Shown here: positions 5,401 to 60,531 of the stretch, piece after piece
How the letters are laid out: every line of letters begins with the position of its first letter
How positions within the stretch are numbered: the first letter of the stretch is position 1
Origin: a virus
Lineage: Duplodnaviria > Caudoviricetes
Virus record (IMG/VR): IMGVR_UViG_3300010162_000393
Location: 32,001-96,000 of that record
Strand: one strand, 5' to 3'
DNA: 64,000 bases
Made by a program: the position numbers and the translations under genes
Notes under the pieces: generated by a model
The model's database searches: none
Told to the model about the DNA's origin: nothing
What the model saw: only the letters and a program-made list of their open reading frames with translations

Positions 5401-8400
5401 CCTGCTGGTCTAACGTTAGACGCTGCAACAGGTGAAATTAAAGGAACGCCGACAGTATTTGGTGATTTTGTATTTACTGTTAAGGTTACTAATGAATGTG
5501 GTTTTGACGAACAAGAAATTAGCATGTTTATATGTGCTGAACCGGAAGTTACAAGCAGTGGTACATTAAGTTTCGTAATGACAGAAGAACATTCGGAACA
5601 ATTAACATCTTCTGGAACACCAGGTGTTTGGTCAATCGTTACCGGTAATTTACCTGATGGTTTGTCTTTGAATGTAGCAACAGGTGTGATTAGTGGTACA
5701 GCAACCGAATTTGGTGATTTTACAGTAGTTGTGAGAGTTGTAAATGAATGTGGTGAAGCAACAAAAGAAACTGTTATTTCTGTTTGCGGATTACCTGTCG
5801 TTACAAGCGGTGATATGGAATTCGTAATGAATGAACCGGTATCACATCAATTAACTGCTGAAGGAACAGAAGGAACTTGGAGATTATTGTCAGGTAAATT
5901 ACCATTAGGATTAACATTAGATTCCGAAACAGGAATAATTAGTGGTACACCTACTGAATTTGGCGACTTCTCTATTGTATTGAGATTTACAAACGTTTGC
6001 GGTGTAGCAAGAAAAATACTGAACATATTCGTATGTGCAAAACCACAAATTACCAGTGCTAATAATATTAACTTTGCACTAAGCGATGAAGCATCATTCC
6101 AATTAGAATATACTGGTACACCAGGAACTTGGTCAGTAGTAGATGGTGATTTACCAGAAGGTGTTACATTGAAACCAACAACAGGTGTAATTAGTGGTAC
6201 TCCAGTAGAAGCAGGTAACTATTATGTTACACTAAAAATTGAAAATGCTTGCGGTGATGCAACTAAAAGCGTTAATATTTTTGTATGCGCTGAACCTGTT
6301 ATAATCGTTAGTAATATAGAATTTTTACAAAACGTATATGTATCGAAACAATTAGATTTTACCGGAAGTAGACCAGGAAAATGGGAAGTAGTTAGTGGTA
6401 GTTTCCCTGCTGGTATTACTTTGGCAACAAACGGTGTTGTTAGCGGAATTCCTACCGAAATGGGTAACTTTGAAGTTGTAGTAAAAGTTAAGAATCCTTG
6501 CGGTGAAGATACAAAAGAAATAAGTTTATTCTCTTGTGCAAAACCTGTTATTATTAATGATAATAATATAGCATTTGTAAAAGGTGAAGAATCTGCTGTT
6601 CAAATAGAAGCTATAGGAACAGAAGGAACATGGTCAATCGTAAGCGGTGCATTACCTAACGGTTTATCTCTCGACCCAAGTGGAGAAATTAGCGGTACTC
6701 CAACCGAAGGTGGAACATTTAAAGTAACTGTACAACTTGAAAATCCTTGCGGAGTAACCACCAAAATGATGGTTATCAACGTATGTGCAAAACCAATTAT
6801 CGTAAGCGGTGATTTGGACTTTGTACAAAATACTCCTGTATCTCACCAATTACGTTTTATTGGTAGCAGACCCGGAAAATGGTCAATAAGTGCAGGAAAT
6901 TTACCGGCAGGATTAAGTTTAGATCCTAATACAGGTATTATTAGTGGTTCAACACACGAATTTGGTGAATACAATCTAACAATTTCGGTTGAAAATGAAT
7001 GTGGTGTTGCAAATAAAGATATTATAATGAGCACCTGTTCTAAACCGGGAATTGTAAGCGGAGATATGAATTTTGTTATAAATGAAGAAGGATCTTCGTT
7101 GTTAGAAAATTCAGGGACAGCGGGTACTTGGTCAATTATAAGTGGTTCTCTACCTAATGGTTTAGAATTAGATGAAATTACCGGAGAAATTAGTGGTACA
7201 CCAACTGTATCTGGTATCTATACATTTACCGTAAAAGTAGTTAACTCTTGTGGTGAAGCAACCAAAGTAGTTAATTTATATGTTTGTGCAAAACCCGTAA
7301 TTTCGACTGGAGATTTATCCTTCGTGATGGGTGAAGCGGTATCACAAAAATTACAATATACTGGAACAAGACCTGGTGAATGGTCAATCGAAGGAGAGTT
7401 ACCTAATGGTTTAACTTTCAACGCAGAAACCGAAACTATCAGCGGAATTCCGAGTGAATTTGGTGAATTTGAAGTTATTTTAATAGTAAAGAATCCTTGT
7501 GGAGAAGCAAGTAAAACGATAGAAATTGTTATTTGTGCAAAACCGGTTATTACAAGCGACCATGCTGACTTTGTAATGGGAGAAGAATCTTCTGTTGAGT
7601 TGGAAGGAAATGGAACTGAAGGTGTATGGACAGTTGATAGCGGAGTATTACCTGAGGGATTGTCATTAAGTTCTGACGGTATTTTAAGTGGTACACCGGC
7701 GGTATCTGGAAACCATAGTTTTACTGTTAAATTCAAAAATGCTTGTGGTGAATCTATTAAAACTATCCTTATATACATTTGTGCTAAACCAACAATAGTT
7801 AGCGGAGATTTGAATATTGTGATGGGAACACCAATGTCACAACAACTAATATTTTCAGGAACAAGACCTGGAACTTGGAGTATCGAAAGTGGTAATTTAC
7901 CTACCGGTATAACATTAAGTGAAGATGGTGTTTTAAGCGGAACTACAACTGAATTTGGTGATTTTGATGTCGTTATAAGGGTGGAGAATCCTTGCGGCAT
8001 AGCATTGAAACCTATAACAATAGACACATGTGCTAAACCTACTATTACAAATAATAGTGATCTAACATTTGTAATGAATGAATATAGTAGCGATGAATTA
8101 ACCGCTTCTGGAACAGCAGGTGTTTGGTCAGTTATTGGTGGTAGTGTTTTACCGGATGGTTTAGAATTAGACGAAGAAACCGGTATAATTAGCGGAACAC
8201 CAACCGTTTCAGGTACATTCAATATAGTGGTAAAAATAGAAAACCATTGCGGTGAAGATATAAGATCAATTGCTATTCAAATATGTGCAAAACCTACTAT
8301 TACAAGCGGCGAATTAGATTTTGAAGTTGGAGTACATGGTTCTGAAACATTGACATTCACTGGTAGCAGACCCGGAACGTGGTCAATTGTAGAAGGTGCT

Positions 8401-11400
8401 TTACCTGCCGGATTGACATTGAATGGTGCAACTGGTGTGATTAGTGGAACACCTACCGAATTTGGTGAATTTTTTGTTGAAGTAAAAGTAGAAAACCATT
8501 GTGGTGAAGAAACAAAAGAAATTGAAATATTTGTTTGTTCAAAACCAGCTGTTACAAGTGGTAGTAATATGAACTTTGTAATGGGTGAAGCTGGTTCAGC
8601 ACAATTAACTTCTTCTGGAACAGAAGGTGAATGGGAAATATTCGCAGGAGAATTACCAGCAGGTTTAGAATTAGACGAAGAAACCGGTTTGATTTACGGT
8701 AATCCAACCGTATTTGGTAACTTCGCTTTCACTGTTATGGTTGTTAATCCTTGCGGATCGGCAACTCAAGAAATTAACATGTTCATTTGCGGAAAACCTG
8801 CCGTTATAAGCGGTGATATGGAATTTGTAATGGGTGAAGAATCAGAAGAACAACTAATGTTCTCTGGTAGCAGACCCGGAACATGGTCAGTCGTAGAAGG
8901 TGATTTACCAGAAGGATTAACATTAGACGCTGAAACTGGTGTAATTAGTGGAACGCCTACTGAATTTGGAGATATTGTATTCACGGTTAAGGTTGAAAAT
9001 CCTTGCGGTGAAGCAACAAAAGAAATAACCGCCGTTGTTTGTGGAAAACCTGTCGTTACGAGTGGAACTAATATGACTTTTGTAATGAACGAACATAGTT
9101 CAGAACAATTAACTTCTTCCGGAACCGAAGGTATTTGGTCAATCGACGATGGTGAACTCCCAATGGGATTAATATTAGATCCTGAAACAGGTGTAATTAG
9201 TGGAACACCATTGGTATTCGGAAACTTTGTTTTCACAGTAAAAGTTGAAAATCCTTGTGGAGAAGCAACCGAAGAAATTAACATGTTCATTTGCGGAAAA
9301 CCAGCTGTTTTGAATAGTACACATCCTAATTTTGTAATGGGTGAAGAAAATGAATTGCAGTTATTATTCTCTGGTAGCAGACCAGGAACATGGTCAATTG
9401 AAGAAGGTGAATTACCAGAAGGGGTAACGTTGGATCCTGAAACAGGTATAATTAGTGGTATTCCTACTGAATTTGGTGACTTTGAATTTACTGTAAAAGT
9501 TGAGAATCCTTGCGGTGAAGCAACAAAAGACTTTGAAATGTTTGTTTGTGCTAAACCTGAAATTATAAGTCCAGACAAATATGATTCTGTATTCGATGAA
9601 GAAATATTATTTCAATTAGAAAATACAGGTACTGAAGGTATATGGGAAATTACAGAGGGTGAATTACCTCTCGGATTAGAATTAGATGAAGAAGGTTTGA
9701 TTGTTGGTACACCAAGAGTATTTGGACACTTCAAGTTCAAGGTAATGGTTGTTAATCCTTGTGGAGAAGACGAAATGGAAATTGATATGTTCATTTGTAA
9801 GCTACCTGAAATTGTAAGTGAAGAATTTGATTTTGTATTAGGCGAAGAAAGTTCTGAAGAATTAACATTTATCGGTAGCAGACCAGGATCTTGGTCAGTT
9901 GTTGAAGGTGATTTACCGGCTGGGTTGGTATTAGACTCGGTAGAAGGAACAATCAGCGGAACAGCAACTGAAAAGGGTGATTTTAATATTACGCTAAAAG
10001 TTATTAACCCTTGTGGTGAAGATACAAAAGAAATAAAAATATTTGTTTGTGAAGAACCGGAGGTTACAAGCGGAGGATACTTTGAATTTGTAATGGGTAA
10101 TGAAGTTGAATTGCAATTAGAACATACTGGAACAGATGGTGAATGGTCGCTTGTTGAAGGTGATTATTTACCAGAGGGTTTAGAATTAAATTCTGAAACC
10201 GGATTAATTAGTGGAATAGCAACAGAATTTGGTAATTTCTACTTCACAGTAAAATTAACTAATTATTGTGGCGAAGCATATAAGGTAATTCAGATATTTA
10301 TGTGCGGATTACCTGAAATCCTAACAGAGTCTATGGGGTTTGTAATGGGTGAAGAAGATGATCATCAAATAGTAGCAACAGGTAGTATGCCTGGAACATG
10401 GTCAATTATAGAAGGTGTATTGCCAAATAGTTTTGTATTAAATACGAGCACAGGTATTATAAGTGGGACACTAACCGAACATGGAGAATTTCCTATAACA
10501 GTTAAACTTGTTAATTCTTGTGGTGAAACAACAAAAGAAATTATTATAACGGTTTGTCAAACTCCAACTATTACAAGCGAAAATGATCTTGAATTTGTAA
10601 TGGGTGAAAGAGTAACATTCCAGTTAACAAATGACGGAACAGCAGGTGAATGGGAAATTATAGACGGTGAATTACCAGAAGGTTTGAGATTAAACCCTTT
10701 AACGGGTGTAATTAGCGGAAGAGCAAGAGAATTTGGTAACTTTACTTTTACAGTGAAAATTGATAACCATTGTGGTTCAGACACACAAGTAATAGAAATG
10801 TTTATGTGTGGATTACCGGTTATTTTACACGGTAATATGAATTTCCAAATAAACGAACCGGGTTCTGATACATTTATTGGTGACGGAACACCAGGTACAT
10901 GGTCTATAGTTGGTGGTGGTTTATTACCAACAGGGTTAACATTGAATCCAACAACAGGTGAAGTTAGTGGAACTCCAACAGTAGCAGGGCATTTTGAACT
11001 TGTCGTAAAACTTGAAAATGATTGTGGAAGTATAATGCGCGATGTTGTGATATTTGTTTGCGCACCACCTGAAATTATTGGTGAAATTGATGATTTCTAT
11101 GTAATGGGTAGCGAAATATCACAAGAATTTCAATTTAGTGGTAGCAGACCTGGAGAATGGAGTGTTGTAGGTGGTGACTTACCAGAAGGTGTAACATTTG
11201 ATCCTGAAACAGGTATTTTGAGTGGTATTCCAACTGAACATGGTGAATTTATATTCACTGTTAAAGTAGAAAATCCTTGCGGTGAAGCAACAAAAGAAAT
11301 AAATATATTTATATGTCTTGAACCGGAAATTATAACAGGAGGGCTTGAATTTGATTTTAACGAATATGGAGAATTTGAGTTAGAGGTTATTGGTTCAGAA

Positions 11401-14400
11401 GGGGCATGGTCAATAGTAGACGGTGATTTACCAATTGGTTTATCGTTGAATGAAGAAACCGGTGTGATTAGTGGAACACCAACCGAAAACGGAGTATTCC
11501 CAATAACTGTAAAATTTGAAAACGATTGCGGTAGTGATGAAACGGAAATATTAATTGTTATTTGTAAAGAGCCGGAAATCACAACTGAAGAAATGACACC
11601 ATCATTAAATAACCCATATTCCCAAAACATAGAATATACCGGTACGGAACCTCATACATGGGCAATAGTAGGCGGTGACTTACCATTGGGATTAGTATTG
11701 AATGAATTTACAGGTGAAATTAGCGGAACGCCATTAGAATTTGGAGATTTTATAATCACTGTTAAAGCAGAAAATGACTGCGGTGAAGATGAAAAAAGTA
11801 TTTTAATATCTGTGTGCGCCGCACCAACTGTTATAACCACCGGTCTTGAATTTGTGGTGGGTCAAGAAGGTTCAGAAGTGTTAGAATCTTTTGGAACACC
11901 AGGAACATGGTCAATAGAAGATGGTGATTTACCAGAGGGGTTGCTATTAGACCCAGATACTGGTGAAATTAGCGGAACACCTACTGATTTAGATGTGTTT
12001 GGTGAAATAAAAATAACAGTTAAGGTTGAAAATGATTGTGGTGATGACGAAAAAGAAATAACCTTATTCATTTGTAGAGAACCTGAAATCACAACAGAAG
12101 ATATGTATGCTTTCGTAGACGAAGAATTTTCAGAATTTATTGTTTATGAAGGTAGTGAACCACATTCGTGGGAAATAGTAGACGGAGATTTGCCTGATGG
12201 TTTAGATTTAGACCCTGAAACAGGTGAAATTAGTGGAACACCAACCGAGTTTGGAGATTTTATATTCACCGTAAAAGTAGAAAATTACTGCGGTGAAGAT
12301 GAAAAAGAAATTCATATGTTCGTATGTGCTCCACCAGAAATTGAAATAGAAGATGACGAATATGATGCCGTAATGGGAGAAGAGTTCTCAATGCAACTAA
12401 CCGCTTACGGAACAGGAGGTGAGTGGTCAATCGAAGATGGTGATTTACCGGAAGGATTGACCTTGAACTCTGAAACAGGTGAAATTAGTGGAACCCCAAC
12501 AGAGTTTGGGGTTTTTACTATCACTTTTAAAATAGAAAATAATTGTGGTGAACAAAATGTTGAAGTCACTATATATGTTTGTGGAGAACCGGAAATTTCA
12601 ACCGGACAATATATCCACCTTGTACAATTAGAAGAATTTGAATTACAATTAGAATTTACTGGTACTCAACCAGGAACATGGTCTGCCGTTAATTTACCAG
12701 ACGGATTAGTATTATCAGAAGATGGTTTATTAAGCGGAATACCAACAGGACATGAAGATGTTACATCACAAATAACTGTTACCAACGACTGCGGTACAGA
12801 CACAAAATCTTTTTTTTTTGATGTAGATGATGTTCATCGACTTATATTTGAAGTAAAAGATATAAGAACTGGTGATCATATACCTGACGCAACTGTTTTA
12901 TGTCCAGGTCTCGATGCGGTAGAAAATGTTGGATCGGGATTTTACATAACAATATTAAATGACGGTACATATACTTGGAGTGTATCAAAAGAGGGGTATT
13001 ACCCAAAGAGTGGAACGGTCATAGTAGAAGGAGATGAAGCGGAAGATATTCACGTATTGGTAGAGCTTCAACCATTAACACATGAAATTAAATTTATCGT
13101 TACAGATGAAGATAGCGGCGACCCGATTATTGGTGCAACCATTGATGTTGTAAATAAAGAAAGTGGTGATACTGTATCTTTAACAGATAACGGTGACGGA
13201 ACATATACTGCATTTATAATCAACGGTGAATATGATTATGATGTGTCAAAAGAAAAATATATCCCAGCAGACGGAGAATTTGAAATCGACCATGATGATG
13301 AAGTGGTTGAAGTACAACTTAAACTTGCTTGCGTAGTTCCAACTATTACAAGTGGAGATAGTATGTATTTCGTAATGGATGAAGAAGGTTTTGAACTCTT
13401 AGAATATACCGGAACAGAAGGAGAGTGGTCAATAGTTGAAGGTGATTTACCTGACGGATTAGATTTAGATCCTGAAACAGGTGAAGTTAGCGGAACGCCA
13501 ACCGAATATGGAAACTTTATATTCACAGCGAAAATAATAAATGAGTGTGGTGAAGATGAAATAGAAATTGATTTATTCGTTTGTGCACCAGAAACAGAAA
13601 TAATAAGCGATGATGAATATGAGATTGTAAGCGGATCGCCTGTTTCGATACAATTAACCACATCGGCAACATTGGGTACGTGGGAAATTGTAGATGGTGG
13701 TTTACCAGCAGGTTTAACGTTAAGTGAAACTGGTTTGATTAGCGGTACAGCAACTGAAATTGGTGAGTTTTGGTTCACAGTAAAAATGGAGGCACCATGT
13801 TGTGAAGACGAAATGGAAATTTATATGTTTGTCTGCGGAACACCAACTATTACAAGTAGTAATAATATGTACTTTGTAATGGGTGAAGAAGACGACTTTC
13901 AATTAACTGCTACCGGATCAGAAGGTCTTTGGTCTATATCAACAGGTTCATTACCATCTGGATTAACATTAGATGCTGGAACTGGTGAGATTAGCGGAAC
14001 ACCTACTGTATATGGTAACTTTACATTCACGGTTAAAATTGTAAATCCTTGTGGTGAAGCAACTCAAAACGTTAATATGAGCATTTGCGGTAAGCCTGAA
14101 ATTACAAGTGCTAATCTTGGATTTGTAATGGATGAAGTTGGAGCGCGACAATTACAATATGACGGTAGTAGACCAGGAACATGGGCAATTGTAGACGGTG
14201 ATTTACCTGCCGGATTAGCATTGAATGCTTCAACAGGTATAATTATTGGTGTACCAACCGAATTTGGGGTATTTGAAGTAACAGTAAAAGTTACCAATGT
14301 TTGTGATGAAGATACAAAAGAAATTATTATAACGGTTTGCGCATCGCCTGAAATTACAAATGAAAATACAATGGAATTCACAATAGGCGAATCAGGTTCT

Positions 14401-17400
14401 GAACAATTAACATCTTCTGGAACAGCGGGAACTTGGTCAATCGAAACAGGTACATTACCTGCCGGATTGACATTAAACGGAACAACCGGTGTAATTAGTG
14501 GAACACCTACCGAATTTGGTGATAGTTTCAAGTTCACGGTGAAAGTTACTAATCCTTGTGGTAGTGATACAATGGAGATTGATATGTTTGTTTGTGGAAA
14601 ACCAGAAGTTACAACTACCGAAATGGAATTTGTAATGGGGGAAGAGAAAACTGAACACTTAACATTCACAGGGACTACACCAGGAACATGGACAATCGAA
14701 GACGGTGATTTACCGGAAGGGTTGGAATTAGATGAAGAAACTGGTGAAATTAGCGGTACACCGACCGAATTTGGCGAATTTTCAATAAGTGTAAAGGTTG
14801 AAAACCATTGCGGTGACGATATAAAAGAAATTGATATAATAGTATGTGGAGAACCGGAAATTACAAGTAGTAATACTATGGAATTTACAATGGGTGAACC
14901 GGGTTCTGAACAATTAACACATACAGGAACAGAAGGTACATGGTCAATTGTTAGCGGAGAAAGCGATGGAAGTTTTGATGACGACTTTGATGATGACTTC
15001 GATATTGGAGAAGAAGCAAGTGAATTACCAGATGGATTATCATTAAATCCGGAAACCGGTGTTATCAGCGGAACCCCAACTGAATTTGGAAACTTTACAA
15101 TTACGGTTAAAGTTGAAAATGATTGCGGTGAAGATGAAATGGAGGTTGAAATAATAATATGTGGTAAACCGGGAATTATAAGTGACGAATTTGACATTGT
15201 AATGGGTGAACCAGAATCTATCTTATTATTACACGAAGGTAGTGCTCCCGGAACTTGGAATATAGAAGATGGTGATCTACCAGATGGTTTAACATTGAAC
15301 GAGGCAACTGGTGAGATTAGCGGAACAGCAAGTGAATTTGGGGTATTTTCATTCACGGTTAAAGTAGTTAATGCTTGTGGTAGTGATACAAAAGAAATAG
15401 AAATAACTGTTTGTGCGGAACCAGAAATTACAAGTGACGATACGACAGATTTTGTAATGGGAAAACCGGGTTCTAAACAATTAACATATTCAGGTACAGA
15501 AGGTATTTGGTCAATATCAAATGGTATATTACCAAATGGGTTGGCGTTGAATACCATAACAGGTTTAATTAGCGGCACACCTACCGAATTTGGTGATTTT
15601 TCAGTTACAGTAAGAATAGTAAATGATTGTAACGAAGATAGTCAAGTAATTAATATGTTTGTTTGTGGAGAACCAGAAATTACAAGCGACGATGAAATGT
15701 TTTTTGTAATGGATGAAGAAGGTTCTAAACAATTAACATATGTTGGTTCACCTGGTGTTTGGTCAATATCAAATGGTGATTTACCAGAAGGTTTAGATCT
15801 AAACGGAGAAACAGGTTTAATTAGCGGAACAGCGACTGAATTTGGTGAATTTATGTTCACTGTAAAAATAACAAACGACTGTGGGGAAGACGAAATGGAG
15901 ATCGAACTATTCGTTTGTGCAACAGATTCTGAAATAACAAGTGATAATGAGTATGAAATTGAAACCGGAAAAACTGTTTCAATACAATTAACTGCTTCTA
16001 AAACATTAGGTGAGTGGGTAATCGTAGATGGTGGATTACCTATTGGGCTGACATTAAATAAAGAAACCGGTTTGATTAGCGGAACAGCAACAGAATTTGG
16101 TGATTTCAAATTCACTGTAAAAATGGAAACAATTTGCGGTGAAGATGAAATGGAAATTGATATATTTGTTTGCGGTGCACCCGTTATTACAAGTGGTAAT
16201 AGTATGAGTTTCGTAATTGATGAACCCGGTTCTGAAACATTAACATACACAGGAACAGAAGGTACATGGTCAATATCAGTTGGTTCATTACCAAACGGTT
16301 TATCACTAAACACTACAACCGGAGTTGTTAGTGGAACGCCCACTGTATACGGTAACTTTATGTTTACGGTAAAAATAACAAATCCTTGTGGTGAGGCATC
16401 TAGAAATATTAATATGTTCATTTGCGGAACACCTGAAATAACAAGTGGTGATAACATGTTTTTCGTAATGGGCGAGTCCAGTTCAGAAACATTAACATTT
16501 GACGGTAGTAGACCTGGAACATGGGCAATAGAAGAAGGGATATTACCAGGTGGTTTATTGTTAAACGGAACAACTGGTGTGATTACTGGAACTCCGACAG
16601 AGTATGGAGATTATGTTTTCACGGTGAAAATTACAAACCCTTGTGGTTGGGCAACAAAACAAATTAATATGTTGGTGTGCACCGAACCAGAAATAACAAC
16701 AAGTATTAATGAATATGATGGTGTAAAAGGTAATCCTATTTCAATAGAATTAGAATCAATCGGAACAGACGGTGTTTGGTCAGTATCAGCGGGTAAATTA
16801 CCTACAGGATTATTGTTAGATGATGAAACCGGAATAATTAGCGGAACACCAACAGAATTTGGTGACTTCACATTTACAGTAAAAATTACTAACCCTTGTG
16901 GAGTAGATACATTAGAGATAGAATTATTTATTTGTGGTCCAGCGGAAATTATAACAGGTCAGTATTTCCATTTTATACAAGAAGAAGAGGTTGAAGAAAC
17001 ATTAGAGTTTGAAGGAACTCATCCCGGTGTTTGGACAGCAGAAGATTTACCAGAAGGATTAGTGTTGTCAGAAGAAGGTAAATTAAGTGGCTCCCCAACA
17101 GAATTTGGTGAATTTAGAACACAAATAACTGTTAACAATGATTGTGGTGGAGATACAAAAGAATTTTTATTTGAAATAGATGATATTCATCGAATTATAT
17201 TTGAAGTAAAAGATATAAGGACTGGTGATCATATACCTGATGCAACTGTTGTTTGCCCTGATTTAGAAATAGAAAACGTTGGTTATGGTTTTTATGTGAC
17301 AAAATTGGTTGACGGAACGTATGATTGGACAGTTTCAAAAGAAGGTTATTATACTGAAACAGGTACGGTTATTGTAGAAGGAGATGAAGCAGAAGATATT

Positions 17401-19827
17401 CATGTATTAGTCTTACTCCAACCTTTGACACACGAAATTAAATTCATAGTAACAGATGAAGACAGTGGTGAACCGATTATTGGCGCAACCATTGATGTTG
17501 TAAATTCAATAAGTGAACAAGTTGTGTCTTTAACTGATAACGGCGATGGAACATACACGGCGTTTATAGTAAATGGAGATTATGATTATGATGTTTCAAA
17601 AGAAAAATATATACCAAAAGATGGTAGATTCAACATTAATCGTGATGATAAAGTAATTGAAGTACAACTTAAACTTGCATGTGAAATACCTGTTATTACA
17701 AGTAGTAATGAGATATTTTCCCTAATAGGTGAAGAAATTTTCTTACAATTGGAACAAGATGGTACACCGGGTGTATGGACATTGGTTGAGGTAACAGGTT
17801 ATGGTGGTGATTTTAATAACGATTTTAGTAACGATTTCAGTATCGGTAAAAACACTGGTAAATTACCTATTGGGGTAACATTTGATTCTGAAAACGCTAT
17901 TATTGGCGGTATACCAAATGAGTTTGGTATCTTTACCGTTACTGTAAAGTTGGAAAACGACTGTGGTGAAGATGAAATGGAAATTGAAATCTTTGTCTGT
18001 GCTGAATCCGAGATAACAAGTACTAATGAAATTATTAACGAAGAAGAGACTCTTCATACAGTAACACTTCTTACAACTATAGAGCGACGCACAAGTCAAA
18101 TTTTCAACGGAAAGTTGTATATGCCACAAGAACAAGGTACCACCCTTGAAATTTTTGATTTGATAACTGAATCTAGTCGCACGGTAACACTTACAAATAT
18201 GGGGCGATACACAAGTCAAATTTTCAACGGAAAGTTGTATATGCCACGAGCACATCAGTTTCCTACCGGTATCGGCACCCTTGAAATTTTTGATTTGGTA
18301 ACTGAAGTTAATCGCACGGTAACGCTTCCTACAAATAATATGATGCGATACACAAGTCATATTTTCAATGGAAAGTTATATATGCCACAAAGTTGGGGTA
18401 CAACCCTTGAGATTTTTGATTTGATAGAAGAAACTACTCGGACGATAACACTTCCTACAAGTATGGAACGATACACAAGTCAAATTTTCAACGGAAAGTT
18501 ATATATGCCACAAAGTTTGGGTACAACCCTTGAGATCTTTGATTTGGTGACAGAAACTACTCGGACGGTAGCACTTCCTACAAATATGTGGCGAAACACA
18601 AGTCAAATTTTCAATGGAAAGTTATATATGCCACAAAATAACGGTACCACCCTTGAGATTTTTGATTTAACGACAGAAACCACACGCACGGTAACACTCC
18701 CTATAGAAGTGTCTCAGGCAAGTCAAATTTACAATGGAAAGTTATGTATGCCACGTTCTGGTGGTGGAACCACCCTTGTGATTTTTGATTTGATAGAAGA
18801 AACCACTAACATGGTAACACTTTCAACTACAAATACGTTCCTATTAACAAGTCAAATTTACAATGGAAAGTTATATATGCCACAAACCAATGGTACCACC
18901 CTTGTGATTTTTACCACCACAATTATAAAATCAAGTTTATTTGAAATAGAAACAAATAAATATGTTTCAATACAATTAACCGCTTCTGCAACTCCTGGAA
19001 CATGGGTAATTACAGAAGGTGTATTACCACTTGGTTTAGTGTTAAATAATAAAACTGGGTTGATAAGTGGTATTGCAACCGAATTTGGAGAGTTTACATT
19101 TACGGTTGAATTGGAAACACCTTGTAGTATTGATACAACGGAAATTAACATGTTTGTTTGCGGCGCACCTGTTATTACAAGCGGTAATAGTATGTATTTC
19201 GTAATGGGAGAAGGTGACTATAGTGAACAATTAGAATATGTTGGCACAGAAGGTGAATGGTCGGTTTCAACAGGAACATTACCTAGTGGTTTATATTTAA
19301 ATCCAATAACCGGTGTTGTAGATGGTACCCCGAATGTATATGGTAACTTTACTTTCACAATTAAAATTGAAAACCCTTGTGGAGAAGCAACTAAAAACAT
19401 TAGTATGTTCATTTGCGGAAAACCAACCGTTATAACTAATCAGTTAAATTTTGTTAGAGGTGAATTTGGTTCAGAAGAATTAATATTTGCTGGTAGTAGA
19501 CCTGGATATTGGTCAATATTTGGTGGTAGTTTTGACGATGAGGATTTTGATGAATCCTTTGAGACAGAAGACGCTGAATTACCATATGGTTTATCATTAG
19601 ATCCAAATACCGGTATTATTAGCGGAACACCGATTGAAATAGGAAACTATGCAATTCTTGTTAAAGTTGTTAATCCTTGTGGTGAAGCAACAAAAGAAAT
19701 TAATATATTAATATGCGATGAATTTGATATAACAAATGATAATCAATATGATATTATAAAAGGTGATCCTATTTTAATACAATTAACAACTACTTTTGGT
19801 AAAAAAGATGAACCAATAGCACATTAA
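2437..19827 (+). CDS. Giant virion fibre/stalk protein: tandem putative-Ig (He_PIG-like) repeats, carboxypeptidase-regulatory-like domains, inserted beta-propeller
   Basis: 5796 aa; about 84-aa repeat C-x-x-P-x-I...W-S-I-x-x-G-x-L-P-x-G-L-x-L...G-x-I-S-G-T-P-T-x-x-G-x-F...N-x-C-G; no signal peptide; late motif upstream. Confidence 0.8.
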   Translation: MASKFSVNRHATQKYSVYSRVVNDISPVVVASTAKSPNDIIFTITFYVTDFNDKKIPDASVSIVSHDFKIINHFDGSYKVIDVPNGKYEYVVEKTGFVAVEGVVTVSGSDLEVHVKLCEVPSKIVNGNLNFVMNEEMYQKFGYVGSTPGTWSVVKGELPNGITFDHDGILSGTPRAFGKFEVTVMVENSCGSVTKDLLIQVCAVPEITTVDFVLPHKQTVSEQLSFYGSEPATWSVEDGLLPKGLLLNGQTGVISGTTKDYGDFDVTFKVANACGEDVKELKITICAKPKITSNDDTKFTMGEEGSVQLTSYGNPGVWTLYSGNLPNGLTLSEDGILSGTPTTFGKFDFTVKVENACGEDRQFMKVWICGKPEVVSGDMSFVMGQPVSHQLQFSGSRPGTWSIVEGVLPKGLTLNAETGVISGTPKEFGESSFTVMVVNPCGEATKVVNASLCAKPTIMSCCSGCDTNFVKGQEASMQYEASGSAGTWSVLGGILPTGLTLDPNTGIISGTPTVGGYYEFTLKFTNPCGEVEKCMSLFVCAEPSIKGSGEISFAMGQPGSHELHFEGSRPGIWSVSEGVLPAGVSLNAELGVISGTPTEFGDFDFTLKVTNHCGESTKEMNISICGQPQITSAGNINILTGESVNIQLESNGTPGVWSAEYGLPEGLSLSADGLISGEPTESGNFNVLITLTNDCGEASRNFNIFVCAEPEILTGDFDVLQNTPMSKQLQFAGSRPGTWSIEEGSLPWELKMDSKGVVSGTPKKVGSFSVLLKVKNYCGEVTKPIVVTSKKTYKATFIVKMEDGTMVPDASVVVGGFIVTNNNNGTYESYLTDGAHGFTVTKEGYEVEEGVVEIDGEDVVVTIILCVFPEILNGDMSFVMGVAKVVQLESTGSAGEWSIQGDLPEGLTFNATTGVISGTPEEFGEFEITLIMTNPCGSVSKDIEIVICGAPEITSSDEIEFVKGEKSSYELEFFGTDPATWEVSEGSLPAGLTLDAATGEIKGTPTVFGDFVFTVKVTNECGFDEQEISMFICAEPEVTSSGTLSFVMTEEHSEQLTSSGTPGVWSIVTGNLPDGLSLNVATGVISGTATEFGDFTVVVRVVNECGEATKETVISVCGLPVVTSGDMEFVMNEPVSHQLTAEGTEGTWRLLSGKLPLGLTLDSETGIISGTPTEFGDFSIVLRFTNVCGVARKILNIFVCAKPQITSANNINFALSDEASFQLEYTGTPGTWSVVDGDLPEGVTLKPTTGVISGTPVEAGNYYVTLKIENACGDATKSVNIFVCAEPVIIVSNIEFLQNVYVSKQLDFTGSRPGKWEVVSGSFPAGITLATNGVVSGIPTEMGNFEVVVKVKNPCGEDTKEISLFSCAKPVIINDNNIAFVKGEESAVQIEAIGTEGTWSIVSGALPNGLSLDPSGEISGTPTEGGTFKVTVQLENPCGVTTKMMVINVCAKPIIVSGDLDFVQNTPVSHQLRFIGSRPGKWSISAGNLPAGLSLDPNTGIISGSTHEFGEYNLTISVENECGVANKDIIMSTCSKPGIVSGDMNFVINEEGSSLLENSGTAGTWSIISGSLPNGLELDEITGEISGTPTVSGIYTFTVKVVNSCGEATKVVNLYVCAKPVISTGDLSFVMGEAVSQKLQYTGTRPGEWSIEGELPNGLTFNAETETISGIPSEFGEFEVILIVKNPCGEASKTIEIVICAKPVITSDHADFVMGEESSVELEGNGTEGVWTVDSGVLPEGLSLSSDGILSGTPAVSGNHSFTVKFKNACGESIKTILIYICAKPTIVSGDLNIVMGTPMSQQLIFSGTRPGTWSIESGNLPTGITLSEDGVLSGTTTEFGDFDVVIRVENPCGIALKPITIDTCAKPTITNNSDLTFVMNEYSSDELTASGTAGVWSVIGGSVLPDGLELDEETGIISGTPTVSGTFNIVVKIENHCGEDIRSIAIQICAKPTITSGELDFEVGVHGSETLTFTGSRPGTWSIVEGALPAGLTLNGATGVISGTPTEFGEFFVEVKVENHCGEETKEIEIFVCSKPAVTSGSNMNFVMGEAGSAQLTSSGTEGEWEIFAGELPAGLELDEETGLIYGNPTVFGNFAFTVMVVNPCGSATQEINMFICGKPAVISGDMEFVMGEESEEQLMFSGSRPGTWSVVEGDLPEGLTLDAETGVISGTPTEFGDIVFTVKVENPCGEATKEITAVVCGKPVVTSGTNMTFVMNEHSSEQLTSSGTEGIWSIDDGELPMGLILDPETGVISGTPLVFGNFVFTVKVENPCGEATEEINMFICGKPAVLNSTHPNFVMGEENELQLLFSGSRPGTWSIEEGELPEGVTLDPETGIISGIPTEFGDFEFTVKVENPCGEATKDFEMFVCAKPEIISPDKYDSVFDEEILFQLENTGTEGIWEITEGELPLGLELDEEGLIVGTPRVFGHFKFKVMVVNPCGEDEMEIDMFICKLPEIVSEEFDFVLGEESSEELTFIGSRPGSWSVVEGDLPAGLVLDSVEGTISGTATEKGDFNITLKVINPCGEDTKEIKIFVCEEPEVTSGGYFEFVMGNEVELQLEHTGTDGEWSLVEGDYLPEGLELNSETGLISGIATEFGNFYFTVKLTNYCGEAYKVIQIFMCGLPEILTESMGFVMGEEDDHQIVATGSMPGTWSIIEGVLPNSFVLNTSTGIISGTLTEHGEFPITVKLVNSCGETTKEIIITVCQTPTITSENDLEFVMGERVTFQLTNDGTAGEWEIIDGELPEGLRLNPLTGVISGRAREFGNFTFTVKIDNHCGSDTQVIEMFMCGLPVILHGNMNFQINEPGSDTFIGDGTPGTWSIVGGGLLPTGLTLNPTTGEVSGTPTVAGHFELVVKLENDCGSIMRDVVIFVCAPPEIIGEIDDFYVMGSEISQEFQFSGSRPGEWSVVGGDLPEGVTFDPETGILSGIPTEHGEFIFTVKVENPCGEATKEINIFICLEPEIITGGLEFDFNEYGEFELEVIGSEGAWSIVDGDLPIGLSLNEETGVISGTPTENGVFPITVKFENDCGSDETEILIVICKEPEITTEEMTPSLNNPYSQNIEYTGTEPHTWAIVGGDLPLGLVLNEFTGEISGTPLEFGDFIITVKAENDCGEDEKSILISVCAAPTVITTGLEFVVGQEGSEVLESFGTPGTWSIEDGDLPEGLLLDPDTGEISGTPTDLDVFGEIKITVKVENDCGDDEKEITLFICREPEITTEDMYAFVDEEFSEFIVYEGSEPHSWEIVDGDLPDGLDLDPETGEISGTPTEFGDFIFTVKVENYCGEDEKEIHMFVCAPPEIEIEDDEYDAVMGEEFSMQLTAYGTGGEWSIEDGDLPEGLTLNSETGEISGTPTEFGVFTITFKIENNCGEQNVEVTIYVCGEPEISTGQYIHLVQLEEFELQLEFTGTQPGTWSAVNLPDGLVLSEDGLLSGIPTGHEDVTSQITVTNDCGTDTKSFFFDVDDVHRLIFEVKDIRTGDHIPDATVLCPGLDAVENVGSGFYITILNDGTYTWSVSKEGYYPKSGTVIVEGDEAEDIHVLVELQPLTHEIKFIVTDEDSGDPIIGATIDVVNKESGDTVSLTDNGDGTYTAFIINGEYDYDVSKEKYIPADGEFEIDHDDEVVEVQLKLACVVPTITSGDSMYFVMDEEGFELLEYTGTEGEWSIVEGDLPDGLDLDPETGEVSGTPTEYGNFIFTAKIINECGEDEIEIDLFVCAPETEIISDDEYEIVSGSPVSIQLTTSATLGTWEIVDGGLPAGLTLSETGLISGTATEIGEFWFTVKMEAPCCEDEMEIYMFVCGTPTITSSNNMYFVMGEEDDFQLTATGSEGLWSISTGSLPSGLTLDAGTGEISGTPTVYGNFTFTVKIVNPCGEATQNVNMSICGKPEITSANLGFVMDEVGARQLQYDGSRPGTWAIVDGDLPAGLALNASTGIIIGVPTEFGVFEVTVKVTNVCDEDTKEIIITVCASPEITNENTMEFTIGESGSEQLTSSGTAGTWSIETGTLPAGLTLNGTTGVISGTPTEFGDSFKFTVKVTNPCGSDTMEIDMFVCGKPEVTTTEMEFVMGEEKTEHLTFTGTTPGTWTIEDGDLPEGLELDEETGEISGTPTEFGEFSISVKVENHCGDDIKEIDIIVCGEPEITSSNTMEFTMGEPGSEQLTHTGTEGTWSIVSGESDGSFDDDFDDDFDIGEEASELPDGLSLNPETGVISGTPTEFGNFTITVKVENDCGEDEMEVEIIICGKPGIISDEFDIVMGEPESILLLHEGSAPGTWNIEDGDLPDGLTLNEATGEISGTASEFGVFSFTVKVVNACGSDTKEIEITVCAEPEITSDDTTDFVMGKPGSKQLTYSGTEGIWSISNGILPNGLALNTITGLISGTPTEFGDFSVTVRIVNDCNEDSQVINMFVCGEPEITSDDEMFFVMDEEGSKQLTYVGSPGVWSISNGDLPEGLDLNGETGLISGTATEFGEFMFTVKITNDCGEDEMEIELFVCATDSEITSDNEYEIETGKTVSIQLTASKTLGEWVIVDGGLPIGLTLNKETGLISGTATEFGDFKFTVKMETICGEDEMEIDIFVCGAPVITSGNSMSFVIDEPGSETLTYTGTEGTWSISVGSLPNGLSLNTTTGVVSGTPTVYGNFMFTVKITNPCGEASRNINMFICGTPEITSGDNMFFVMGESSSETLTFDGSRPGTWAIEEGILPGGLLLNGTTGVITGTPTEYGDYVFTVKITNPCGWATKQINMLVCTEPEITTSINEYDGVKGNPISIELESIGTDGVWSVSAGKLPTGLLLDDETGIISGTPTEFGDFTFTVKITNPCGVDTLEIELFICGPAEIITGQYFHFIQEEEVEETLEFEGTHPGVWTAEDLPEGLVLSEEGKLSGSPTEFGEFRTQITVNNDCGGDTKEFLFEIDDIHRIIFEVKDIRTGDHIPDATVVCPDLEIENVGYGFYVTKLVDGTYDWTVSKEGYYTETGTVIVEGDEAEDIHVLVLLQPLTHEIKFIVTDEDSGEPIIGATIDVVNSISEQVVSLTDNGDGTYTAFIVNGDYDYDVSKEKYIPKDGRFNINRDDKVIEVQLKLACEIPVITSSNEIFSLIGEEIFLQLEQDGTPGVWTLVEVTGYGGDFNNDFSNDFSIGKNTGKLPIGVTFDSENAIIGGIPNEFGIFTVTVKLENDCGEDEMEIEIFVCAESEITSTNEIINEEETLHTVTLLTTIERRTSQIFNGKLYMPQEQGTTLEIFDLITESSRTVTLTNMGRYTSQIFNGKLYMPRAHQFPTGIGTLEIFDLVTEVNRTVTLPTNNMMRYTSHIFNGKLYMPQSWGTTLEIFDLIEETTRTITLPTSMERYTSQIFNGKLYMPQSLGTTLEIFDLVTETTRTVALPTNMWRNTSQIFNGKLYMPQNNGTTLEIFDLTTETTRTVTLPIEVSQASQIYNGKLCMPRSGGGTTLVIFDLIEETTNMVTLSTTNTFLLTSQIYNGKLYMPQTNGTTLVIFTTTIIKSSLFEIETNKYVSIQLTASATPGTWVITEGVLPLGLVLNNKTGLISGIATEFGEFTFTVELETPCSIDTTEINMFVCGAPVITSGNSMYFVMGEGDYSEQLEYVGTEGEWSVSTGTLPSGLYLNPITGVVDGTPNVYGNFTFTIKIENPCGEATKNISMFICGKPTVITNQLNFVRGEFGSEELIFAGSRPGYWSIFGGSFDDEDFDESFETEDAELPYGLSLDPNTGIISGTPIEIGNYAILVKVVNPCGEATKEINILICDEFDITNDNQYDIIKGDPILIQLTTTFGKKDEPIAH
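18050..18920 (+). repeat. Seven 120-141-nt tandem repeats encoding beta-propeller blades (TSQIFNGKLYMP...GTTLEIFDL)
   Basis: Repeat cores start at 18091, 18211, 18352, 18475, 18598, 18718 and 18847. Confidence 0.85.
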
Positions 19828-57792: not shown

Positions 57793-57839
57793 TTTTTGTT
57801 TAATATTTGAAATATACTATATTCGATTATATTTTTGAT

Positions 57840-58184
57840 ATGAGTGGTTTTGTTTATCTAATACTTGAATGGGATAAAATTGAAGAAAACCTTGTCCCAA
57901 GTAAAATAGGTGTTACCAGAGGGTGTATTGAAAAACGTATCAAAAAACTCCAAACCGGAAATACCTCTAATCTACATCTCTTCACACATTTCAAATCTGA
58001 ACATCCGTTTAGGTTAGAAAAAATGTTACACAACCATTACCAAAAATATAAAACAAATGGTGAATGGTTTAACCTACCAAATGAAACTGTATTAGGATTC
58101 AAAACCATTTGTGAAGAAAAAGAAGAACTTATTAAATTTCTACTAAAAGAAAACCATTTTTTCGGAAAAAAAACAGGTTTCTAA
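57840..58184 (+). CDS. GIY-YIG/T5orf172-domain protein
   Basis: GFVYLI, KIGVT, RIKKLQTGN, LEKMLH, GEWF; ATG 57840 preferred over TTG 57807. Confidence 0.8.
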   Translation: MSGFVYLILEWDKIEENLVPSKIGVTRGCIEKRIKKLQTGNTSNLHLFTHFKSEHPFRLEKMLHNHYQKYKTNGEWFNLPNETVLGFKTICEEKEELIKFLLKENHFFGKKTGF

Positions 58185-58187
58185 TTT
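58178..58187 (+). repeat. Target-site duplication, left copy (tttctaattt)
   Basis: Identical 10-mer at 59455-59464; each copy directly abuts a TIR. Confidence 0.85.
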
Positions 58188-58209
58188 ATGATTTTCCGCA
58201 AACATACCC

Positions 58210-59403
58210 CTAAAAGTTATTTGTTTTTAGAATTGACGCTTCAACGGGTTCGTAACCTCTTCCCTCCACGTCCACTACCCCCCACATCGGGGGTGATATA
58301 CCTATATTCCTTATGTTTATGGAAGCGTTAAAATCCCTGTCATGTAAAATGCTACACGAAGGACATATCCACTCCCTTACACGTAAATCCTTTACCTCAA
58401 CATTCTTATAACCACACCTGTTACACAACTGCGAGGAAGCAACAAACCTACCAATCTTGATAAGATTCTTACCTTGCCACTCACTTTTGTATCCCAACTG
58501 CCGTACAAACTCACTCCAACTTACCGACTGAATACTTCGCGCAAGTTTGTGGTTTTTGACCATTCCGCTTACGTTCAAATCCTCAATACAAATGGTGTCG
58601 TAATTATCCAACAAATACGTGGACAAATTATGCAACCAATGGTTTCGTTGAAATGTGATTTTTTGGTGAATTTTTGCAACCTTCAACCTTTGCTTTTCTC
58701 TACGATGACTTCCTTTTTGTCTTCGACACAACACCTTTTGGGCGTGTGCTAAACGTAAATGAGTCTTTTCAAGAAATTTTGGGTTTCCAAAACATTCACC
58801 ATTTGAGGTAACAGCAAATTCCTTAATTCCCAAGTCAATACCTATGGTTTTATTAGAATCTTCCACTTTGGTTTTCGGTGGAATTGGTTCTAGCGTATCG
58901 CATAGGATACTTACGAAATAATAACCTGCCTGTGTTTTTGATACTGTCATAGACTTGATTTTTCCTTTTGGGAGTCTTGACAATATCACTACTATATTTC
59001 CACATTTTCCTAATCTTACGGTGGATTTCTCCACGTTCAGGTTGAAACAATCTGGAAATGTACAAGTTTGTTTGTTACATTTTTTCTTATAATTTGGGTA
59101 TCCTGCTGGTTTCCCTTGTTTTACATTTCTGAAAAAATTGTTGTATGCTGAATCGACGTTGTTCAGAGTAACGTTCAGGGTATGTGCGGTGGTGTCTTTC
59201 AACCATTCATGTTCTAACGTTAATTCGTTTCGCAACATTTTTCCCAAATCGAAAGAAGATAATGACTTCTTTTCAGTTTCCCACAACGTTTTCTTTTTGT
59301 TCACTGCCCAATTATAGATAAACCGAGAACAACCAAAATGTTGTGCAAGGGCAACTTTTTGGTTATCGGTTGGGTATATTCTATATTTGAACGCCTTTAA
59401 CAT
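58210..59403 (-). CDS. tnpB: TnpB RNA-guided endonuclease (IS200/IS605 OrfB family)
   Basis: HTH KAFKYRIYPT, RuvC GIDLG / IEDL / DRDFNA, Zn finger CNRC...CPSC; catalytic D-E-D intact. Confidence 0.95.
   Translation of the reverse strand: MLKAFKYRIYPTDNQKVALAQHFGCSRFIYNWAVNKKKTLWETEKKSLSSFDLGKMLRNELTLEHEWLKDTTAHTLNVTLNNVDSAYNNFFRNVKQGKPAGYPNYKKKCNKQTCTFPDCFNLNVEKSTVRLGKCGNIVVILSRLPKGKIKSMTVSKTQAGYYFVSILCDTLEPIPPKTKVEDSNKTIGIDLGIKEFAVTSNGECFGNPKFLEKTHLRLAHAQKVLCRRQKGSHRREKQRLKVAKIHQKITFQRNHWLHNLSTYLLDNYDTICIEDLNVSGMVKNHKLARSIQSVSWSEFVRQLGYKSEWQGKNLIKIGRFVASSQLCNRCGYKNVEVKDLRVREWICPSCSILHDRDFNASINIRNIGISPPMWGVVDVEGRGYEPVEASILKTNNF
58213..58330 (-). ncRNA. Predicted omega/reRNA scaffold overlapping the tnpB 3' end plus 20-nt guide (5' boundary approximate)
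   Basis: GC-rich hairpins (ccccc-gatgt-ggggg) and GAAGCGTCAA ending at 58233, like IS200/IS605 right ends. Confidence 0.6.
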
Positions 59404-59454
59404 ATTTCAAATTTACACTTTTTATACGATAGGGGTATTATTGCGGAAAATCAT

Positions 59455-59464
59455 TTTCTAATTT
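59455..59464 (+). repeat. Target-site duplication, right copy (tttctaattt)
   Basis: Identical to 58178-58187. Confidence 0.85.
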
Positions 59465-60531
59465 CTGTAAAACAAAACATCATCCGCCTCAATTGGATAT
59501 GGAAAATCCATTTCCTTCATCATATTCATAATGGTATTAGGATGTACTTGTCCTTCCCTTCTATCAATATGGTTTTGTTTTGTGGTTTCATGATATTCAA
59601 TTGTTATGTGAGGATTATATGGGGATACCATTTGAATGAATTCGTCACGGTATTTTTTTCTTATAAAAAGATTATCTGAAACAAAGTTTTGTCTTCGTTC
59701 ACATAATTCTATTATCTGTTTATGTTCAACATGTGTCACCTTGTCTTCCTGAATTTTGTTCCCCTTTAATTTTCCACCATGTTCAACCATACCTAATTCC
59801 GCTCTAATAATGTCGCGTGATATTAGTTCAAACCCAAATTGTTTATATCGTCTTTCATATGCCGTTGTTTTTCCACCACCAGCAACTCCGCATAAAATTG
59901 TAATATAAAAACCAGATTCTTCTTTTGTTTCAATTTTTGGTTCGCAATTCCAAACACCTAATTGTTTAGCATAATCTTTTAATGTTTCGCAATGTTGAAT
60001 TTCATTTTCTTTATCAATGGATATTGCACCCATTACATCAAACAGATTAAGATAATATAACAAACGACAATCTGAATTGCGTGATATGTTGGTTACATTT
60101 TTTTCAATATCTTCCATTTTGAAACGCAAATATTTTGGTTTCATGTGGTGTTTTATCAACGAACATATTTTCTCTCTCAAAGGTAGTGGTTCATCCCACA
60201 ACATAAATCGTGTCAATCGCTCTCCTTCAATAGCATGATATGCTGCTGACCAGTTACCATCTTCTTTTAGTTTTGCAACTTTTCCTTTACCAATATCATG
60301 AAATAATGAGGCGGAAACCAAAACCAATTTTTCAAAATCTGAAAATTCTTTTGGATTTTGTTTCAAATAATCTTGACACGCTTTTACCACCATTTTGGTA
60401 TGTACCATTGTACTACCCTCCTGATGCCATTCACTATGATATCCACCTTCATTGAGACGTTGAAATTCTGGTATTTCTTCTACCAAGTTCCAATTAACCT
60501 TTGTATTACCAATTATTAATCTATCTAACAT
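59458..60531 (-). CDS. HD-domain phosphohydrolase fused to P-loop (polynucleotide kinase-like) domain
   Basis: WHQEG...HT, LFHDIGK, HHM; GVAGGGKTT, ISRDIIR. Confidence 0.8.
   Translation of the reverse strand: MLDRLIIGNTKVNWNLVEEIPEFQRLNEGGYHSEWHQEGSTMVHTKMVVKACQDYLKQNPKEFSDFEKLVLVSASLFHDIGKGKVAKLKEDGNWSAAYHAIEGERLTRFMLWDEPLPLREKICSLIKHHMKPKYLRFKMEDIEKNVTNISRNSDCRLLYYLNLFDVMGAISIDKENEIQHCETLKDYAKQLGVWNCEPKIETKEESGFYITILCGVAGGGKTTAYERRYKQFGFELISRDIIRAELGMVEHGGKLKGNKIQEDKVTHVEHKQIIELCERRQNFVSDNLFIRKKYRDEFIQMVSPYNPHITIEYHETTKQNHIDRREGQVHPNTIMNMMKEMDFPYPIEADDVLFYRN

Follow-up and report, generated by a model that had tools for sequence, protein, structure and literature searches.

A 64,000-nucleotide (nt) stretch of AT-rich phage DNA, hereafter the window, carries a 1.27-kb unit, cassette A (window 58188–59454), in which tnpB is the sole gene between 25-bp inverted repeats, and it is at these repeats that a mobile unit truly begins and ends. 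The window corresponds to positions 32,001 to 96,000 of IMG/VR record IMGVR_UViG_3300010162_000393 (G000:C1:32001-96000), a 136.9-kb fragment of a phage from termite-gut samples that has 31.6% GC and encodes a T4-type capsid protein; the record is rated 38% complete, about 60% of the genome being missing. That the repeats are transposon ends follows from two observations: a second cassette with the same ends lies in the same record, and a variant of cassette A recovered from a different study loses homology at the outer edge of the repeat. TnpB is generally explained as an aid to IS200/IS605 and IS607 transposons, in that it cuts the vacated site and thereby lets the element be copied back. 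With moderate confidence, we explain cassette A as a non-autonomous transposon of the cut-and-paste type, made up of repeats, promoter, tnpB, and omegaRNA scaffold, which would have inserted between two convergent genes with a 10-bp duplication and whose TnpB would draw its guide from the flank and promote homing.

Ends of cassette A and a second cassette in the same phage

The two arms of cassette A (ATGATTTTCCGCAAACATACCCCTA and, as reverse complement, ATGATTTTCCGCAATAATACCCCTA; coordinates in table 1) match at 23 of 25 positions and form the top inverted pair of the region in a repeat search. The pattern of this repeat, which can be used as a query in the form ATGATTTTCCGCAANNATACCCCT, is matched twice in the window, by the two arms themselves, and was never matched in 100 shuffles. 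Directly outside the arms stands a perfect 10-bp direct repeat, the whole (58178–59464) reading TTTCTAATTT / ATGATTTTCCGCAAACATACCCCTA ... TAGGGGTATTATTGCGGAAAATCAT / TTTCTAATTT; given the base composition, a 10/10 match at these fixed positions has a probability of 3.5e-6, and the site as it stood before the insertion can be reconstructed as ...TTTTACAG-AAATTAGAAA-CCTGTTTTTT. The enclosed protein bears the HTH_OrfB_IS605 (PF12323), OrfB_IS605 (PF01385), and TNB (PF07282) domains, all well over cut-off, and in an alignment with 11 relatives the catalytic residues D190, E274, and D357 as well as the cysteines C327, C330, C347, and C350 fall in invariant columns, while the stop codon of the gene lies within the repeat that is on the left in the window. 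A first-pass annotation of this DNA had described an intact D-E-D tnpB alone inside such inverted repeats and flanked by such a direct repeat, and both the ends and the gene are borne out by these analyses. The presence of 25-bp terminal inverted repeats together with a perfect 10-bp duplication sets cassette A outside the IS200/IS605 elements mobilized by a Y1 TnpA.

The same ends recur around a different cargo. Cassette B (G000:C1:13979-15308; L003:1501-2830), which is located in the record outside the window, has repeats 24/25 identical to those of cassette A and is flanked by TTAGAAATAA and TTAGAAATAT, a direct repeat matching at 9 of 10 positions (chance 8.7e-5). Its interior has no nucleotide similarity to that of cassette A and encodes TnpB only, in the same orientation and with the stop codon again at the repeat; this second TnpB is 412 amino acids (aa) long, is devoid of the zinc-finger cysteines, and is 24% identical to the first. 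Across the ~136 kb of the record, the repeat motif is thus present in four copies that make up two inverted pairs, each around a tnpB and each with a flanking direct repeat. The fixed length of the duplication rests on these two complete insertions, one flank having been recovered for the variant from the other study. The target duplications of the two cassettes share the 7-mer TTTCTAA / TTAGAAA, at different offsets and in different orientations, which may reflect a target preference, two sites being too few to judge; for the same reason, no weight was given to the likeness of this core to the TTCTAA that opens the 20-nt stretch discussed below.

Contigs of four termite-gut runs (including X4, X5, and X6) were compared against the region. 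In run X6, which belongs to a different termite-gut study, a variant ~92% identical to cassette A is homologous up to 59455 and continues into an unrelated flank; one X5 contig diverges from the window sequence at 59456; and, at the other end, contigs from runs X4 and X5 that are of the L005 type presented hereafter diverge just beyond the repeat, at 58186. The identical protein is also present in a 269-kb assembly. Of the codons that differ between cassette A and the X6 variant, 21 are altered synonymously and 13 nonsynonymously, and helix P1 of the omegaRNA scaffold shows a compensatory change from C-G to T-A (58282/58290), which indicates that tnpB and its RNA are under selection in moved copies. 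TnpB and the two helices P1 and P2 of its scaffold are, in this sense, conserved under selection.

A further locus shares part of cassette A. In another jumbo-phage fragment from termite gut (G001), locus L005 (L005:6935-8549) comprises the right repeat, a stretch of 17 nt, and ~80 nt of cassette-A-type scaffold, followed 1.5 kb away by CAAATTTACACTTTTTAT, the 18-nt core of the tnpB leader, which has a single occurrence in the cassette A phage genome. A Band_7/SPFH gene and small open reading frames (ORFs) stand there in place of tnpB, and the second repeat is missing. Compared with cassette A, 41 scaffold nt are identical and the repeat matches at 24 of 25 positions; the locus is a derivative that arose by either a swap of cargo or recombination.

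The omegaRNA scaffold and the position of the guide

By sequence, the TnpB of cassette A groups with the IS200/IS605 (Y1) lineage and that of cassette B with the IS607 (serine recombinase) lineage. The relatives of the former (44–51% identity) are devoid of bracketing inverted repeats, some of them adjoining a Y1 transposase gene (L083), and their units end in a conserved hairpin and ...TCAC or ...TCAA, after which the flank is variable. Among the relatives of the latter (40–54% identity), some follow a serine recombinase gene (L017, L024). These Y1-type and serine-type affinities indicate that two lineages were packaged independently in one set of ends. A locus search of GTDB genomes with TnpB alone returned no hit.

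Some relatives of the cassette B TnpB show arrangements of their own. Two phage tnpB-only units (L041:2882-4229 and L030:2898-4227) appear to have inverted ends (29 and 15 nt, respectively) and possible 9-bp direct repeats (GGTATTTAT and ATTTTCACC), the sequences of their repeats being unrelated to that of cassette A. Another relative is present three times on a single 161-kb phage contig (L014, L016, and L022, ~82% identical), and each copy displays a conserved scaffold end (GAATAAATAGTTTT), then 6–20 variable nt, then a conserved (C)TGATACGAT motif and the flank, thereby sharing with the cassettes studied here the order of scaffold, variable stretch, and conserved terminus.

The covariance model used to analyze the scaffold of cassette A was derived from seven relatives devoid of repeats, and in it helices P1, P2, and P3 are followed by an 8-nt tail and then by the guide. 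The model matches the minus strand at 58188–58304 over its full length (35.5 bits, E value 3.4e-6), and the P2 stem GACG...CGTC covaries with CCTG...CAGG and CTTG...CAAG in relatives, so that the scaffold is homologous to those of the repeat-less Y1-type relatives. After P2, all of the ~50 relatives have ~33 nt more, namely a hairpin with a CTTTAG loop and the 8-nt tail ending in TCA(A/C/T), whereas cassette A has AA, 20 nt, and the repeat, with no clear terminal hairpin. In the best alignment to the model, P3 is formed from UUC...GGA with a 32-nt insert and the tail falls on the outer end of the repeat, AAAATCAT; yet the score is 35.6 bits with the repeat and 34.7 bits in its absence, and since the repeat adds only 0.9 bit, the covariance model cannot place the 3′ end of the scaffold. 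An Rfam scan of 57900–59700 matched no family. The conserved 41 nt were also considered as a tRNA fragment, a possibility that was dropped, no tRNA being found in the window or in the whole record. A third match to the model, at window 8627–8721 (E value 0.13), was taken as chance: it lies inside a single ORF of 5,796 aa (window 2437–19824, plus strand), downstream of which are ORFs of 1,770 and 2,228 aa.

The stretch between scaffold and repeat is the part that differs between copies. In cassette A, the order proposed by the first-pass annotation, with 20 nt standing between GAAGCGTCAA and the repeat, is indeed present, but its constancy is not: after identical scaffold, L005 has 17 nt of a different sequence (TTTCCAAAAAAACACCC), a variability after TCAA that does not fit a fixed guide travelling with the element. 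These 17 nt are an inverted copy of repeat positions 6–22 (14/17), which only 16 of 5000 shuffles equal; the same pattern is found with a gap in cassette B (215 of 5000), and RNAfold pairs TTTCC and an A-run with TTTTT..GGAAA of the repeat in both cassette B and L005. In L041 and L055, repeat-bearing relatives of the cassette B TnpB, 10–12 nt separate the last conserved scaffold hairpin from the repeat. The 20-nt stretch of cassette A would represent the loop and an arm of a terminal hairpin, an internal guide being the less likely alternative. The variability of this stretch between conserved neighbors, along with the precedents of Fanzor and of TnpBs associated with DDE transposases, suggests that the guide probably lies outside the repeat, and we lean, if only somewhat, toward its being taken from the flank.

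Probable movement in trans and competing explanations

On this basis, the non-autonomous element described in the first-pass annotation, with its terminal repeats, target duplication, tnpB, and omegaRNA scaffold, is retained, and what finds no support is the 20-nt guide fixed inside the repeat. Cassettes A and B were probably both moved by a borrowed transposase, which would act in trans and be encoded elsewhere, whether by the host, by some other element, or by the ~60% of the phage genome that is missing; the inverted repeats and the duplication suggest that it is of the DDE type. The omegaRNA would most likely read through the right repeat, which would fold back on the stretch just upstream, and the guide would come from the flank (the duplicated 10 bp and the next bases), as in Fanzor. 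Where co-infecting phage genomes carry the site unoccupied, TnpB would then cut it, and the cassette would be copied in by recombinational repair, which amounts to homing.

The search for other copies of the ends, for an empty site, and for a DDE partner yielded the second cassette, the X6 variant, and the L005 copy, and neither empty site nor partner. Beyond cassettes A and B, the repeat pattern has a single copy in L005, the remaining matches being apparently due to chance: GTDB genomes gave none, and JGI metagenomes gave copies of the L005 locus, a doubtful AT-rich intergenic match (L061/L068), and GC-rich matches that have no partner repeat and were judged chance. A search with a conserved 25-mer of the scaffold likewise returned L005 only. 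Among the best 25 of the 57 families matched in a Pfam scan of 86 ORFs from the record, there is no transposase, Y1 included. The ends could not be assigned to the IS1595 family: the IS1595-type transposase domain (PF12762, DDE_Tnp_IS1595) is absent from the record and was found in a single gene, in an unrelated record (L079), among 47 other phage records, the ends there being unlike the cassette repeats; the duplication is of 10 bp (9–10 bp in cassette B) and not of the 8 bp of the IS1595 type, an 8-bp reading requiring unequal ends. The neighboring HD/AAA_33 gene, used to seek an empty site, has no relatives in IMG/VR or in the L005-bearing fragment.

Several of these results, and some others, weigh against the explanation that we prefer. 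Neither the genome fragment nor IMG/VR, GTDB genomes, or JGI metagenomes yielded a transposase with these ends; an absence from the phage itself is not thereby shown, because the record is only 38% complete. No empty site was found either, no contig of the four termite-gut runs joining across the cassette, and no RNA run is listed among the runs that contain this stretch. As for the guide, the same 25 nt would have to be tolerated immediately ahead of it by two TnpB scaffolds that differ greatly, the small gain in score brought by the repeat leaves structural homology of the 3′ end without support from the covariance model, and the complementarity of the 20 nt of cassette A to the repeat is not significant in a 5000-shuffle test.

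The main alternative concerns the guide: tnpB and its omegaRNA would have been captured along with ~20 nt of old flank, the scaffold ending in ...GCGTCAA (58233) and the next 20 nt acting as a fixed guide. We hold this to be unlikely, if deserving of a hearing. Each TnpB would in this way keep its native junction between scaffold and guide, P2 ends in ...GAAGCGTC, AGCGTCAA resembles the AGTGTCAA tail of one subfamily of relatives, and no clear canonical P3 is seen in cassette A, the model scoring about as well when the repeat is left out. A possible target also exists: the 20-mer TTCTAAAAACAAATAACTTT has five exact 20/20 matches in IMG/VR, all at one homologous site (L160–L164; e.g., L161:4741-4760, minus strand) and preceded by TATGAG or TATCAG, in a 261-aa gene of unassigned function next to a deoxynucleoside monophosphate (dNMP) kinase gene on contigs of ~350-kb phages, when the reversed control 20-mer has no match there. 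However, with a Markov chance of ~5e-11 per position in AT-rich phage DNA, and with 20/21 matches in unrelated Staphylococcus phages of a 2.3-Gb GenBank phage set, this only candidate target is within chance expectation, which makes it a lead and not a finding, and the matched phages share almost nothing with the cassette A phage. That the omegaRNA ends in GCGTCAA and that the internal 20 nt direct TnpB to this conserved jumbo-phage gene, the cassette being a portable pre-programmed weapon rather than a homing device, is a scenario that we find improbable. The different 17 nt that follow a fully conserved scaffold in L005, the 10–12 nt available in L041 and L055, the further ~33 nt of scaffold present in all of the ~50 relatives, and the position of the Fanzor guide outside the repeat all go against a guide built into the cassette, which is therefore not supported and which we rate as rather doubtful.

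The likeness between the repeat and the preceding stretch could alternatively be a matter of DNA, the two forming a hairpin that serves as a transposase site or as a folded-back end, or else the RNA might recognize the repeat, TnpB then acting on the ends of the cassette itself. The inverted copy in L005 and its gapped counterpart in cassette B speak for such a hairpin, as does the fact that the inner arms track their own repeat (CAAATA against TGTTTG in cassette A; AAAAA against TTTTT in L005 and cassette B). Furthermore, the left end of cassette B contains the GATCAGAAAA promoter-like motif of the phage, and this motif leaves its consensus exactly where the change gives complementarity to the repeat; the apparent inner copy of the repeat at this end being that motif, the idea of a composite of two tiny elements, each end being a decayed repeat pair, was dropped for this end. 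But the similarity is not significant in cassette A, homing predicts purifying selection on TnpB just as well, there is no sign of TnpB acting on its own ends, and no transposon-associated motif (TAM) can be named, an attempt to read one from the left ends of relatives having yielded ends of 0–28 nt with no readable consensus. We thus regard both variants of this idea as having little chance of being right. Less credible still is that the repeats are a regulatory or recombination motif of the phage that brackets tnpB by accident, the direct repeat being local sequence. The failure to find a transposase or an empty site and the TTTCTAA core common to both duplications would fit it, but within the record the motif occurs only as inverted pairs around a tnpB with a direct repeat, the flank of the X6 variant differs directly beyond the repeat, and the two cargoes are unrelated, which makes this reading very improbable.

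One giant phage holds two TnpBs of different backgrounds that were repackaged in the same foreign ends and that were both apparently kept functional. This shows that a module made of a nuclease and its guide RNA can change transposon chassis more than once, and the two cassettes form a natural pair in which to study how a guide-RNA scaffold accommodates an end that comes from a foreign transposon. With a guide outside the repeat, every guide would include duplicated target bases, from which testable rules of self-avoidance would follow; with a guide inside it, the module would be a fixed-target weapon, in which a TnpB of prokaryotes would have its target hard-wired and a borrowed transposase as its shuttle.

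Sequence context and known systems

Table 1. Cassette A and adjoining features, in window coordinates
Feature	Position	Strand	Remark or basis
T5orf172/MUG113-domain gene, neighbor outside the cassette	57807..58184	+	Pfam domains
Direct repeat, left copy (target-site duplication), TTTCTAATTT	58178..58187		contains the TAA stop of the T5orf172 gene
Terminal inverted repeat, 3′ (right) end in tnpB orientation	58188..58212		includes the tnpB stop, 58210-58212
20-nt stretch, TTCTAAAAACAAATAACTTT	58213..58232	-	varies between copies; partly complementary to the adjoining repeat
omegaRNA scaffold, helices P1 and P2, overlapping the tnpB 3′ end	58233..58304	-	covariance model, covariation
tnpB	58210..59403	-	397 aa; RuvC D-E-D, C4 zinc finger; purifying selection
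Leader between the 5′ repeat and the tnpB ATG	59404..59429	-	contains TAAATTTG
Terminal inverted repeat, 5′ (left) end in tnpB orientation	59430..59454		repeat search, shuffles
Direct repeat, right copy	59455..59464		contains the TAG stop of the HD/AAA_33 gene (minus strand)
HD and AAA_33 gene, neighbor outside the cassette	59458..60531	-	Pfam domains

The two neighbors of cassette A are convergent, and both of their stop codons (TAA at 58182–84 for the T5orf172 gene, TAG at 59458–60 on the minus strand for the HD/AAA_33 gene) fall within the direct repeat; because the duplication contains the stop codons of both, both genes stay whole. Within the T5orf172 gene, a 37-nt stretch (58097–58133) recurs in other contigs of the same samples between flanks that are unrelated on either side, and may represent a motif conserved among paralogous genes that resemble those of homing endonucleases. 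In the leader of tnpB, the TAAATTTG element fits the −7 box of Bacteroidota promoters (TAnnTTTG). Across the whole record, a GATCAGAAA(A)ATTnTTAAAATTATTTTG-like motif occurs 14 times, always on the minus strand (e.g., G000:C1:15274, 16279, 17239, and 23447) and mostly a short distance upstream of a gene, pointing to a promoter specific to the phage.

With regard to known systems, the principle of a TnpB housed in an inverted-repeat transposon, including solo copies moved in trans, was already published in 2023: TnpBs associated with DDE transposases have inverted ends, solo TnpBs that bear matching ends are presumed to move in trans, and the guides of the DDE-associated TnpBs are assumed to derive from the ends (Altae-Tran et al. 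2023, PNAS, PMC10691335). Taken together, the DDE-1 to DDE-6 branches of these TnpBs and the solo TnpBs share with cassette A the inverted repeats around tnpB, the position of the tnpB 3′ end at the transposon end, an element with no transposase inside and thus a proposed mobilization in trans, and an occurrence in a virus. For cassettes A and B, by contrast, neither a partner transposase nor an autonomous element with these ends was found, their TnpBs group by sequence with relatives associated with Y1 transposases and serine recombinases, and their duplication is of 10 bp; the literature searched contained no phage genome in which one set of ends, with a 10-bp duplication, surrounds both a Y1-type and a serine-type TnpB. 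Canonical IS200/IS605 elements, for their part, have neither terminal inverted repeats nor target duplications (PMC13565253). Cassette A has in common with them, and in particular with the solo TnpBs of the IS1341 type, the TnpB domains, the catalytic residues, and homologous P1 and P2 helices, but the scaffold of the canonical relatives ends in the conserved hairpin and ...TCAC/...TCAA directly before the flank, when no such hairpin is clear in cassette A.

Fanzor1 offers the other comparison, as it too is a single RNA-guided nuclease gene between inverted repeats (~30 nt in Fanzor1). The first-pass annotation had invoked the capture of Fanzor by terminal-inverted-repeat transposons as a parallel. 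In Fanzor1 systems such as SpuFz1, the mapped omegaRNA extends its scaffold across the 3′ repeat, and the 14–15 nt past this repeat form the guide (Saito et al. 2023, PMC10432273). Fanzor1 differs from cassette A in being eukaryotic and in having a mapped omegaRNA. Lastly, Fanzor1 also has "ghost" copies from which the nuclease is missing, to which the tnpB-less remnant at L005 may be compared.

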